Part shown: positions 60,536 to 63,821 of the stretch, in pieces | How positions within the stretch are numbered: the stretch's first letter is position 1 | How the letters are laid out: each line of letters opens with the position of its first letter | Assembly: GCA_963833125.1 (NCBI GenBank) | Contig: CAWHWX010000004.1 | Span: 96,001-160,000 of the forward strand | Reading direction: 5' to 3' | Length of the DNA: 64,000 nt | Origin: Candidatus Bathyarchaeota archaeon | GTDB taxonomy: Archaea > Thermoproteota > Bathyarchaeia > 40CM-2-53-6 | Made by a program: the position numbers and the translations under genes | Notes under the pieces: model-generated | The model's input: the letters and a program-made list of their open reading frames with translations, nothing else | Told to the model about the DNA's origin: nothing | Databases searched by the model: none

Positions 60536-60787
60536 TTCTATCTCATTCCTTTACTATCTTGATAGATAACCATACATACAGATAACGATTCATCCATGAA
60601 CCGTGTCAATTTAGCCACTTCACGCATGAGCAAAGATCCCCTTAATCTATTTGCGCCAGGCTTCTAGGCCTAATTCAAATCGACAGGACGTCATACGCCC
60701 AAGTTTTGAACTTAATTACAGATTTCGACTGTGAATGCTACTTATCCCATGCAAAGTCAGAATGATGTGTATAACGTATGATATCTT

Positions 60788-60840
60788 GGGAAAAAGAAGA
60801 GACGGCTCTCTTAGGAAGGCGCGAAAGTACGCCTAGAGAG
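60788..60840 (-). terminator. Hairpin plus pyrimidine/T-rich terminator after the YQP gene
   Basis: CTCTCTAGG...CCTAAGAGAG stem followed by TCTCTTCTTTTTCCC on the minus strand. Confidence 0.55.
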
Positions 60841-60843
60841 GTG

Positions 60844-61041
60844 TCACTGGACCCTGTACGCTTGCGGTTGATAGGAGTAGTACTGGGCAGGTGGCTGATA
60901 TGAGTAATACTGCGTAGCTGGCTGATAGTAGGACTGCATGGGTGCTTGATAGTAGCACATCTCAGTGGGTGGTTGATAGTACTGGGCAGGAGGTTGATAG
61001 TAGTAGTATTGGGCTGCTGGCTGATAAAATGACATTGACAT
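60844..61041 (-). CDS. 65-aa Tyr/Gln/Pro tandem-repeat protein
   Basis: MSMSFYQPAAQYYYYQPPAQYYQPPTEMCYYQAPMQSYYQPATQYYSYQPPAQYYSYQPQAYRVQ; GGAGG SD at 61053-61057. Confidence 0.8.
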   Translation of the reverse strand: MSMSFYQPAAQYYYYQPPAQYYQPPTEMCYYQAPMQSYYQPATQYYSYQPPAQYYSYQPQAYRVQ

Positions 61042-61058
61042 TCTTGTTTTCGCCTCCT

Positions 61059-61379
61059 TCAATTTTCGTTAAGCGCTTGCGGCTTCGTGTTGGTTTCTTC
61101 ATGCTTGCCGTGCGAGAATATGCTCCGTAGTTTTGACGTAATTCTCTGCGAAACCGAACCACTTTGAAAACGTGTCTTCTCGTACTCCGTGACCTCGCCC
61201 GTCCCGGATACGGTGACGTTGGCGTATTGGGTTCCGTTCGTTTCTTTTGTCTGTGTTTCCATTACCCAGATGTCTTGCCGTTGTGCAGATTTGATTTCCG
61301 TTTGTGCGCCTAATTCCTTTGTTTTTACATATTCGAGAGCGATTCGCTTTGCTTCAGTTTCATCGATCATTTTTTCCAT
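61059..61379 (-). CDS. PepSY-like domain protein
   Basis: IDETEAKRIALEYV...WVME...VTVS.TGEV PepSY pattern; no signal peptide. Confidence 0.7.
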   Translation of the reverse strand: MEKMIDETEAKRIALEYVKTKELGAQTEIKSAQRQDIWVMETQTKETNGTQYANVTVSGTGEVTEYEKTRFQSGSVSQRITSKLRSIFSHGKHEETNTKPQALNEN

Positions 61380-61400
61380 GACTGTTTCCCCGTACCTAAC

Positions 61401-61520
61401 TTAGATGTTACGTATACGCTCCGTCAGTTTCTCGAATTTACTCTGCTTCTTAGTAGAGAAATGCGTTTTCAGTTTTTCAAATCTACTCTTTTCTGTACCG
61501 AAATACTTGCTTAGTTTCAT
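61401..61520 (-). CDS. 39-aa basic repeat peptide
   Basis: MKLSKYFGTEKSRFEKLKTHFSTKKQSKFEKLTERIRNI; TTTATAT box 34 nt upstream. Confidence 0.7.
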   Translation of the reverse strand: MKLSKYFGTEKSRFEKLKTHFSTKKQSKFEKLTERIRNI

Positions 61521-61725
61521 ATCGATCTACAATAGATCATAGTCGTTTTGCGGATATAAAGCTATGTATATATATTGTTAAATGTACACGACGCCAGTTA
61601 CGCCGGAATAGGGCAAACGCAGTGTGCTAAAATCTAGAGTTATCGAGTGTTGACGGTGCGACCGCCTTTCGAAGATTAGAGTGTCGACTCTGAAAACAGA
61701 GGCGAGAAACACAAAGGGAGGGAAC

Positions 61726-61893
61726 TCAGATCGCTTTCATGATCTCTTTGATATGCTGTTTAGCGCTGTCCTTGATTTCCTGGAATTCCTGGTTCTTGCC
61801 AAATTCTCCAAGACTTCGTTCAACCATCTCGAAGAGTTTGTCGATATCTTGCAGAAGCCCTGTGAGTTCTCCACGAATCTTTCCTGTGTCCAA
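61726..61893 (-). CDS. 55-aa helical-hairpin microprotein
   Basis: MDTGKIRGELTGLLQDIDKLFEMVERSLGEFGKNQEFQEIKDSAKQHIKEIMKAI; TTATTAAG box ~30 nt upstream; pyrimidine run downstream. Confidence 0.65.
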   Translation of the reverse strand: MDTGKIRGELTGLLQDIDKLFEMVERSLGEFGKNQEFQEIKDSAKQHIKEIMKAI

Positions 61894-62035: not shown

Positions 62036-63821
62036 ATGACCTACAAGCCTAGAGACTACGGGATTGAGCACTCATTACTGGAGTGGGTAGCTGCTGTTGC
62101 GAAGATAACTAGACCAGACAACATAGCGTGGTGTGATGGATCTGATGAAGAATTTCAATCTCTCATCAAACTGATGATCGTAGACGGGACACTGATCGAG
62201 CTTAACCAAGAAAAATATCCAAACTGCTATCTGCACAGGAGCAACCCGAACGATGTCGCCAGAACCGAAGAAGCGACCTTCATCTGCACAATGAACAGAG
62301 ATGATGTGGGTCCCACGAATAATTGGATGCCTTCTGATGAAGGTGAAGCAAAGTTACTGAGGCTTTTTGATAATTGCATGATAGGACGAACGATGTATGT
62401 TATCCCATACCTGCTTGGACCTGCAGGTTCGACTTATTCTCAGGTCGGAATTGAGCTGACTGATAGTCGCTATGTCGCTGTGAATATGGAAATCATGACG
62501 AAAGTCGGCAAGGTTGCGCTAGAGCACATGAAGGACGGCGAATTTGTGAAGGGCATCCATTCAACCGGCCAGTTGGACCCCAATAGAAGGTACATTTGCC
62601 ATTTCCCAGATAAGAAGCTCATAATGAGTTTGAACTCGAATTATGGAGGAAACGCCCTTCTCAGCAAGAAATGCCATGCCCTTAGGCTCGCGAGCGTATT
62701 GGCGAGAGATGGAGGATGGCTGGCCGAGCACATGCTGATTATAGGGGTAGAAGACCAAGAGGGCACTGTAACTTATGTGACCGGGGCGTTCCCCAGCGCC
62801 AGCGGTAAAACTAACCTTGCCATGCTCAGGCCGCCAGAATACATGAAGGACTGGAAAGTCTGGGCGGTCAGCGACGACATAGCTTGGATTCATCTAGACT
62901 CCCAAGGCAGATTCAGAGCAATCAACCCCGAGAGTGGATTGTTCGCGGTGGCTCCCAATACTAACATCAAGACCAACCCCGAAATAATGGAAACTGTCAG
63001 AAAGAACACTATATTCACGAATGTCGCCTTGGCAATGGATAGAACTCCTTGGTGGGAAGGCATGGGCGACCATCCCAGAAAACTTTGGGACTGGCAAGGA
63101 AAAGTTTGGACAGCCGGCAAGGGACCCGCTGCCCACCCAAATTCAAGGTTCACAACTTCAATCAATCAATACCGATTCCTATCCCCCGAGTACACTAATC
63201 CGAATGGTGTTCCAATCTCGGCCATAATTTTCGGAGGAAGAAGATCTGACCTTGTTCCGTTAGTTTACGAATCATTCAGCTGGGAACACGGCGTTTTGAT
63301 GGGCGCAATGCTTAGAGTGGAAACTACGGCCGCCGGCTGCAGGGGAGGTTGGAGTTCTAAGATACGATCCCATGGCGATGAAACCATTCTGCGGATATCA
63401 CATTGCCGATTACTTCAGACACTGGCTCTCATTCCGATCAAGAAGCGAAAACCTCCCGAGAATATTCCAGATAAATGCATTCAGAATGGGAAAAGATGGA
63501 AGATTCCTCTGGCCCGGTTACGGTCACAACCTCGTCGTTCTCAAATGGATTATTGACAGATGTAAAGGCAGGGCTGATGCAATAGAAACCCCCATAGGCT
63601 ACGTTCCGACGCCTGAGTCACTCAACTTGACCGGGGTGAATCTACCGGGATGCACAATCGAAGATTTGCTTCGAGTCGATAAAACAGCGTGGATGGACGA
63701 AATCGAATCCTCTTGGTTATTCTTCAAAACCCTCGGAGAACAATTTCCTGAAACATTGTACCAGGAGCTTTCGAAACTGAGAGATAGACTACAAAATCCG
63801 AGCTCCTCACCACACCAATAA
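62036..63821 (+). CDS. pckG: GTP-dependent phosphoenolpyruvate carboxykinase (frameshift near 63335)
   Basis: DVARTE, YGGNALLSKKC, WLAEHM, FPSASGKTNLAM, DDIAW, HPNSRF, DPMAMKPFCGY. Confidence 0.95.

Follow-up and report, generated by a model that had tools for sequence, protein, structure and literature searches.

The DNA analysed here is a stretch of 64,000 nucleotides from a Candidatus Bathyarchaeota archaeon, referred to below as the window. Its minus strand carries, at positions 60844..61041 (stop codon included), an open reading frame (ORF) for a protein made largely of tyrosine, glutamine and proline. Starting from an ATG, the ORF specifies 65 amino acids with the layout MSMSF-(YQPxxQYYx)7-AYRVQ, which we call the window type (or type C); initiation at an alternative TTG codon, 21 nt further upstream, would extend the product to 72 aa. 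Tyr (18 residues), Gln (14) and Pro (10) together account for 65% of the protein, and its only charged residues are one Glu and one Arg. Asn is absent (Q+N is 14 of 65 residues) and glycines are few. Seven YQ[P/A] units are found, at residues 6, 15, 22, 31, 39, 48 and 57. These figures were obtained by an independent count and are identical to those in the earlier, sequence-based description of the ORF (the original prediction), which gave the length, the Tyr, Gln and Pro content, the two charged residues and the seven units. In the DNA, Tandem Repeats Finder detects only inexact repeats, with periods of 27 and 24 nt and 78-81% matches, and the codons are mixed (TAT 8 and TAC 10; CAG 8 and CAA 6; four Pro codons). 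No hydrophobic stretch can be read in the sequence; hence the protein should have neither a signal peptide nor a membrane segment, in agreement with the original prediction on the former point.

The same prediction described the protein as "stand-alone". This does not hold: the gene has many relatives, and it is the third gene of a three-gene cassette of approximately 800 bp that is duplicated in the genome. Alignment of the window locus with a second copy in the same genome (contig C10) and with a copy in a congeneric genome, G019, delineates a sharply bounded conserved cassette, beyond whose borders identity collapses. All its elements lie on the minus strand. Conservation among the three copies begins abruptly at an AT-rich, promoter-like block (61551..61584), about 37 nt before the ATG of the first ORF. 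The block includes a TTTATAT element which, by analogy with archaeal promoters, we take to be a TATA box. The first ORF (61401..61520) putatively encodes a basic protein of 39 aa (MKLSKYFGTEKSRFEKLK...), remains uninterrupted and almost unchanged across the three copies, and received no assignment in a family search. It is followed by a gene for a 106-aa protein (61059..61379), then by a GGAGG Shine-Dalgarno-like site (61053..61057), 11 nt before the repeat gene's ATG. This putative ribosome binding site does not vary among the three cassette copies and is also present at the copy of the repeat gene in genome G013. Directly past the repeat gene's stop codon, a stable hairpin with a U-rich tract (60790..60840) marks the downstream border of the cassette, where conservation stops. 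The 71-nt segment from 60780 to 60850 folds with a free energy of -20.5 kcal/mol (z = -3.98), and none of 200 shuffled sequences was as stable. A scan of the minus strand for bacterial-type promoters and terminators returned nothing relevant and did not list the hairpin; the scan has no models of archaeal signals. The genes that flank the cassette, an aminopeptidase C-like peptidase, a PNPOx-like protein and a split GTP-type PEP carboxykinase, are mutually unrelated.

The 106-aa product is a hypothetical protein confined to Bathyarchaeota, with weak resemblance to PepSY domains. All of its Pfam matches fall under the cut-off (DUF6294, E 6e-4; YPEB_PepSY1-2, E 0.05); it has no NCBIfam match, and a PDB sequence search gave no matches at E ≤ 1. 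The nearest ESM Atlas cluster (score 0.93) is an archaeal hypothetical protein. Within the taxonomic family, six of 59 genomes contain homologues, and these six belong to genus g1.

The ORF is a real small protein gene. Comparison with its same-length orthologue in G019 showed 12 differences, eight synonymous and four non-synonymous, giving an omega of 0.10 in the annotated frame, an estimate that rests on this small number of changes; in the five other frames omega ranges from 0.33 to 3.4 or is undefined. This frame-specific constraint bears out the suggestion, made in the original prediction, that selection acts at the protein level. Six orthologues of the 75-aa core form of the family (described below) show the same pattern, with a pS of 0.755 (saturated) against a pN of 0.228 in the annotated frame. 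Among their other frames, a low ratio is found only in the antisense frame that shares the wobble position, and this frame contains 19 stops in the window gene. The C10 paralogue differs from the window gene by a single 27-nt unit, in frame.

One may still ask whether the ORF arose by chance on a DNA-level tandem repeat or belongs to a non-coding RNA element. What speaks for this is the shortness and low complexity of the gene, together with several other open frames over the repeat (ORFs of 41-66 aa, on both strands). Furthermore, the protein, used as a single query in a word-indexed homologue search, found no match at E ≤ 10; its relatives surfaced only through six-frame genome searches and profile searches. 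Against this stand the frame-specific, mostly synonymous nature of the substitutions, the in-frame unit gain, and the conservation of start position and Shine-Dalgarno-like site among relatives in which the majority of synonymous sites have changed. To these can be added order-wide profile matches with E values down to 5e-33 and a shuffle control that rules out composition alone. The non-coding explanation is thus largely refuted, and we consider it highly improbable.

Peat RNA libraries contain sequences matching the cassette. Five RNA runs were listed with part of the stretch; the four libraries examined, from one study, all yielded matching contigs, at 90-99% identity. Within the 1001-nt stretch used for comparison these contigs cover positions 60823-61493 and nothing outside. 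One contig of 270 nt includes the entire ORF, and another of 564 nt joins the ORF to the 106-aa gene. The contigs derive from close relatives rather than from the exact strain, their variants agreeing with the G019 allele; they may include DNA, carry no information on strand or level and are no proof of transcription. As for the protein, tryptic proteomics would miss it, because it has no Lys and a single Arg.

By sequence comparison, the window gene is a divergent paralogue of an unnamed family with the plan MSYYYVPRPP-(YxYQPPPxx)n-RVQ. ORFs of the family were read in 36 fetched loci and starts were tabulated for 34. The typical (core) member opens with M/L/V-S-Y-Y-x-V-P-(R/K)-P-P, continues with five to twelve units of about nine residues, consensus Y-x-Y-Q-P-P-P-x-x, and closes the repeat with (A/P)(V/Y)RVQ or RVY. 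Some members carry a tail in addition, which can be Gly/Tyr-rich (GGYGGY...FW), of the RVYDPRELPIKR-type / ...IRVYDPRELPIKR, or a zinc ribbon. The start codon falls at the same MSY/MAY-type position in all 34 tabulated ORFs (26 ATG, 6 TTG, 1 GTG and 1 CTG). Core genes usually have a GGTGA-like site 5-9 nt ahead of this start, and a TTTATT/CTTATT element approximately 35-45 nt upstream. Members are conserved from first to last residue, the repeats beginning at residue 2-5. The core form is also present in the window's own genome, where contigs C12 and C17 carry copies of 75 aa that are identical to each other. In genus g1, core genes have conserved neighbours which we take to be TiaS-like, NAD(P)HX epimerase/dehydratase-like, Lrp-like and Tsr3-like genes; we read this conservation as vertical synteny within one genus and not as functional linkage.

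The window type (MSMSF/Y-YQPAAQYYYY...YQPQAYRVQ) keeps the family's start, unit and end. It does not have the VP(R/K)PP motif and the Cys segment of core members, and the third Pro of the unit is replaced by Thr or Ala. At the start, MSMSF of the window protein and MSMSY of its two closest copies align with the MSY of core members; at the end, QAYRVQ corresponds to PAVRVQ, PAYRVQ or PAYRVY. Numbering residues from the Gln of the unit, the 24 units in three window-type sequences have Tyr at -1 in every case, Pro at +1 in 92% and Pro or Ala at +2. A spacing of exactly nine residues predominates, being seen in 79 of 170 intervals in the core genes (207 units) and in 11 of 21 in the window type. 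Tyr is conserved at both -3 and -1, with a variable residue between the two, in other words in an i/i+2 pattern. A hidden Markov model (HMM) was built from 37 core-family sequences, leaving the window type out to avoid circularity. This core-only HMM scored the window protein at 29.1 bits, against 0.5 for the best of 1000 shuffled versions and 5.5 for the reversed sequence. The pattern in the window protein is therefore more than a matter of composition.

The family is previously undescribed and restricted to a single order of Bathyarchaeia, archaea of soil and peat. Of 301 Bathyarchaeia genomes, 48 gave a match to its profile (best E value 5e-33, as noted above), all in the families f1-f10 that make up the window's order: 47 of the 86 genomes sampled in these families, plus the window's own. 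In the 214 genomes of other sampled Bathyarchaeia families there was no match. Run against 1.84 billion representative proteins, the profile retrieved 29 at E ≤ 1e-3; on reading their sequences, 25 are family members and four are unrelated, eukaryote-like repeats. In the word-indexed collection, 58 clusters match the family. None has a Pfam domain, and those that are named are all called "hypothetical protein". None of 26 aligned members has a Pfam or NCBIfam match above cut-off. Relaxing the threshold to E ≤ 1 brings in three models from Pfam and one from NCBIfam, each in one or two of the 26; the sole NCBIfam match is a sub-threshold one to HxsA4 (E 0.06, two members). The profile matched no PDB chain at E ≤ 1, and the best ESM Atlas matches of the core paralogue are unnamed clusters with scores of 0.78-0.82, which is chance level. 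A literature search found no description of such a family, and the strings YYQPPP, YQPPPQ, YQPPAQ and YVPRPP led to unrelated papers only.

Traces of a core locus are found next to the window gene. Its 3' flank contains the string CTCTAGGCGTACTT and a TTTTCCCA, both common to the 3' flanks of core genes in genus g5, and encodes a decayed C-terminus like that of the convergent UroD/MtaA-like gene of g5. These remnants suggest that the window type may have arisen via segmental duplication of a core locus.

The g5 loci are also the ones that bear on the possibility of a modified peptide. Cyclophane-forming maturases cross-link repeated aromatic-x-x motifs, and the original prediction had considered that the protein might be a multi-core RiPP precursor. 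The repeat protein could, in principle, be the substrate of a radical SAM/SPASM maturase (TIGR04084, AF0577 family) that would act on its repeated aromatic motifs. In g5, the family gene is immediately preceded, on the same strand, by a TIGR04084 gene (E 1e-96 to 1e-99, above cut-off). This adjacency was mapped in three loci (L031, L034 and L040) and, judging from coordinates, holds in all four enzyme-carrying g5 genomes. The next-best NCBIfam models of the g5 enzyme include the peptide maturases PapB, YhhB, FxsB and DynA, and the g5-type flank remnant beside the window gene suggests that the arrangement may be ancestral. However, no TIGR04084 protein scores above cut-off in the window genome (87.8% complete), the best reaching 29.9 bits versus the 225 required. 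Elsewhere the enzyme is single-copy and distant from the family gene (75 kb in G014, 1.5 Mb in G018), and none of ten further radical SAM neighbourhoods contains an adjoining Tyr/Gln/Pro-rich ORF. The enzyme also occurs where the family was not found: it is present in two of three genomes of genus g12, none of which gave a family match, and in a Sulfolobus control. Finally, the family genes are conserved from first to last codon, with no split into leader and core. The original prediction's statement that no modifying enzyme is adjacent is correct within the window. The 21 family neighbourhoods mapped showed no conserved modifying-enzyme neighbour, and a radical SAM adjacency in g5 only. The precursor hypothesis, reduced to this one weak lead in a single genus, strikes us as very unlikely.

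A different role would involve the cassette neighbours. The seven to twelve evenly spaced, Tyr-flanked PP(P) motifs could make the protein a multivalent ligand or adaptor, whose QPP(P) motifs, in polyproline-II conformation, would dock on a proline-recognition domain, for example in the 106-aa PepSY-like protein or in the 39-aa basic protein. The linkage to the 106-aa gene is tight, the gap being 17 nt in the window and 17-26 nt across all three cassette copies, and one RNA-library contig extends over both genes, as mentioned. Yet a 106-aa homologue and a window-type gene occur together in three of eight loci, the five others having no repeat gene alongside, and in G013 the window-type gene, whose product has grown to 118 aa, lacks the 106-aa partner. 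It follows that the pairing is not obligatory. Moreover, the neighbours of core family genes are different and variable, no proline-recognition domain was identified in the analysis, and the i/i+2 pattern of the tyrosines is more in keeping with beta strands than with polyproline-II, whose period is three residues. We therefore regard the ligand model as unlikely.

Structure prediction points to beta strands. Given the family alignment, AlphaFold2 modelled the window protein with a mean pLDDT of 75.8, a pTM of 0.34 and six strands (residues 20-22, 27-31, 36-39, 45-48, 53-57 and 62-64). For the 75-aa core paralogue, mean pLDDT rose to 86.1 and pTM to 0.45, with all five models at or above 79; here eight strands are predicted at a spacing of about nine residues. 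These values should be read in light of the alignments, which are shallow (26 and 40 rows) and repetitive, since repeats can inflate confidence, and of the low pTM. An i/i+2 alternation of Tyr is as expected of beta strands, and the sequence thus agrees with the predicted strands. The connections between strands are only about four residues long, which would favour an antiparallel hairpin ribbon. Pro-Pro-Pro is an unusual hairpin turn. A complex of two copies of the window protein predicted with ESMFold2, run without controls, scored 0.00 against a mark of 0.42, which counts neither for nor against self-association; chain pLDDT was below 50 in at least one run. Foldseek, run on each of the two models, found no match in the PDB at E ≤ 1e-3; highest ranked were the hairpin stems of pore-forming toxins, with E > 1. 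A wide VIA-align search reached a Z of 2.4 at best, far short of the 7-8 that this tool calls typical even of models without a match, and no similar solved structure was found. For these models, the absence of a structural match is compatible with a new fold but also with an incorrect model, and is no proof of the former.

On this basis we propose, with a probability of roughly 40%, that the window gene, a recent paralogue of the family, encodes a self-associating beta-hairpin repeat protein with tyrosine ladders that would form a cross-beta-like assembly in the cytoplasm. The Y-x-Y-Q stretches would form short beta strands and the P-P-(P) stretches the turns, folding the chain into a flat beta-hairpin ribbon whose faces bear tyrosine and glutamine ladders. 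Because such a ribbon would have no hydrophobic core to bury, it would probably pair or stack with its own copies or with those of paralogues. Stacked ribbons, in turn, may build a cross-beta-like assembly with a structural or scaffolding function in the cytoplasm. Such a model stays close to the amyloid scaffold of the original prediction, with an ordered repeat in place of a disordered prion-like domain. The strand-and-turn pattern is a prediction of the models; hairpin topology, self-association and cellular role are what we infer. A bolder version would see in the family a new single-chain cross-beta fold, in which strands of four to five residues, Pro-Pro(-Pro) turns and Tyr/Gln ladders generate a self-assembling, amyloid-like and possibly self-templating cytoplasmic structure, with evolution restricted to one order, several paralogues per genome and tails that would tune assembly. 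In this extended form the proposal is rather unlikely.

The order implied by hairpin ribbons has to be weighed against a disordered state. The protein could be a prion-like, low-complexity chain in which Tyr "stickers" and Gln/Pro spacers drive the formation of condensates, or of amyloid that is ordered in the assembly only, the AlphaFold2 strands being an artefact of the repetitive alignments. A composition of 65% Tyr, Gln and Pro with two charged residues would suit this model. So would the tails of the GGYGGY type on some family members, tails of this type being typical of phase-separating domains. The ESMFold2 pLDDT below 50, the low AlphaFold2 pTM and the failure to match any solved fold are in line with it too. 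On the other hand, the five models of the core paralogue agree at high pLDDT (86.1), the unit length is strict, and Tyr at i/i+2 and both exact termini are conserved throughout the order. Compositional low-complexity regions usually drift more than these repeats do. The absence of Asn and the paucity of Gly in the window protein argue in the same direction. Overall, we find a disordered chain doubtful, although it retains a substantial share of probability. The original designation of the protein as prion-like is apt for its composition, in a loose sense; the disordered chain that the term evokes is not what AlphaFold2 returns, namely ordered short strands, though ESMFold2 is unsure.

The N-domain of yeast Sup35 contains Q/Y-rich oligopeptide repeats characteristic of prion domains. 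Like Sup35-type and archaeal prion domains, the window protein is nearly uncharged, rich in Gln and Tyr and built of short, Pro-containing tandem units. It differs from them in having no Asn, little Gly, and Pro doublets or triplets every nine residues or so. Unlike a prion domain, the repeat is the whole protein, with no functional body attached, and it is predicted to adopt an ordered strand-and-turn arrangement. The preprint of Zajkowski et al. (10.1101/2020.07.20.212902) reports that archaeal candidate prion domains positive in amyloid and yeast assays contain P-Q pairs with Tyr or Phe nearby, a feature that also speaks for the disordered alternative.

The hairpin ribbon that we favour has counterparts among flat-sheet proteins. 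The central sheet of OspA and the cross-beta silk of lacewings are examples of flat, single-layer or cross-beta repeat proteins. As in these proteins, and as in SasG E-G5 and telethonin, the modelled ribbon consists of short strands and tight turns without a conventional hydrophobic core. The resemblance does not extend to a significant structural match (telethonin 2f8v_Y, Z 2.4; SasG 5dbl_A, Z 2.0) and, unlike the known examples of flat-sheet proteins that are extracellular, the window protein has no export signal. With the multi-core precursors of radical SAM/SPASM enzymes (YhhB/FxsB types and His-Xaa-Ser repeat peptides) the family shares tandem short aromatic motifs and, in one genus, an upstream TIGR04084 gene; unlike those precursors, it has no leader peptide, and the enzyme is not co-distributed and is usually distant. 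Repeats rich in Tyr and Pro are also known from plant extensins, proline-rich wall proteins, high-Gly/Tyr keratin-associated proteins, HMW glutenin and the Pfam family XYPPX. These eukaryotic proteins are either secreted and enzymatically cross-linked or serve as storage proteins. The family resembles them in composition, in its short Pro-Tyr units and in the Gly/Tyr-rich tails of some members. It differs in its archaeal host and in having no signal peptide, and no Pfam repeat family was matched by the 26 members at E ≤ 1.

Sediments, soils and peat harbour abundant but uncultured Bathyarchaeia, about whose cell biology, to our knowledge, next to nothing has been established. The family defined here adds to their repertoire a lineage-restricted, multi-copy group of very small and apparently expressed proteins with an extreme aromatic repeat, for which an all-beta repeat architecture without structural match is predicted. 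It also illustrates how such genes escape annotation, the copies in databases being labelled "hypothetical protein" and their start codons often mis-called. At 65-75 aa, the proteins are short enough to be easily synthesised and tested. If the predicted fold is real, the family would show that tyrosine-ladder repeats of the single-sheet or cross-beta kind exist in nature, and would be relevant to protein folding and design, to functional amyloids and to prion-like elements in archaea.

The gene for the 65-aa Tyr/Gln/Pro repeat protein (window 60844-61041, minus strand) lies within an approximately 800 bp, three-gene cassette (window 60790-61584, minus strand) whose borders are marked by a sharp change in conservation among three loci. 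The cassette comprises a promoter-like block, a 39-aa basic ORF, a 106-aa ORF and, as last gene, the repeat gene, followed by a hairpin. Two copies are present in the window genome, one in the window itself and one on a separate contig (G000:C10, locus L056), and a third is found in a congener (G019:C31, locus L055). A 55-aa ORF (window 61726-61893, minus strand) is positioned upstream from the cassette in all three loci. Another genome of the same genus, G002, carries close to its homologue of the 106-aa gene a Tyr/Gln/Ser/Asn-rich open frame of 95 aa with YSQYQYYPYN repeats (L018 2938-3223, contig C61, minus strand), which is distinct from the repeat gene.

A gene for a GTP-type PEP carboxykinase (window 62036-63821, plus strand) is divided between two ORFs that overlap. 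One, of 506 aa, spans PEPCK_N and, in the profile of the C-terminal domain, positions 1-207; the other, of 149 aa, spans positions 219-357 of that profile. The arrangement suggests that a frameshift or assembly error is present around 63340-63375.

The window genome also harbors the 75-aa core family gene, of which the window type is a divergent paralogue, in two identical copies on two contigs (G000:C12:32372-32599, L049; G000:C17:35578-35805, L048). Several downstream ORFs are common to both loci, and the contamination estimate for the assembly is 7%; the copies may represent a true duplication or redundant contigs. Two decayed copies of the family occur in other genomes. One, a 66-aa open frame with no conserved start (L022 4631-4829, G014:C1, plus strand), adjoins an intact family gene; another is a 33-aa remnant of the window-type C-terminus with a TGA within the match (L054 4003-4102, G008:C8, plus strand).

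In genus g5, a TIGR04084 (AF0577-family) radical SAM/SPASM gene lies immediately 5′ of the family gene at three loci (L031 2640-3761, L034 2604-3803 and L040 4403-5602), with an Asp/Glu racemase-like and a UroD/MtaA-like gene as flanking genes. The radical SAM/SPASM enzyme family is represented by one copy each in 36 of 61 related genomes. In g5, a UroD/MtaA-like gene is convergent to the core family gene, and its product ends in YDLEPGVKWENVLAFIEAVRKYG. A 33-aa ORF beside the repeat gene (window 60735-60836, plus strand) has a similar C-terminal end, YDILGKRRDGSLRKARKYA. The 33-aa ORF is probably a remnant, suggesting that the window-type gene originated by segmental duplication of a core locus.
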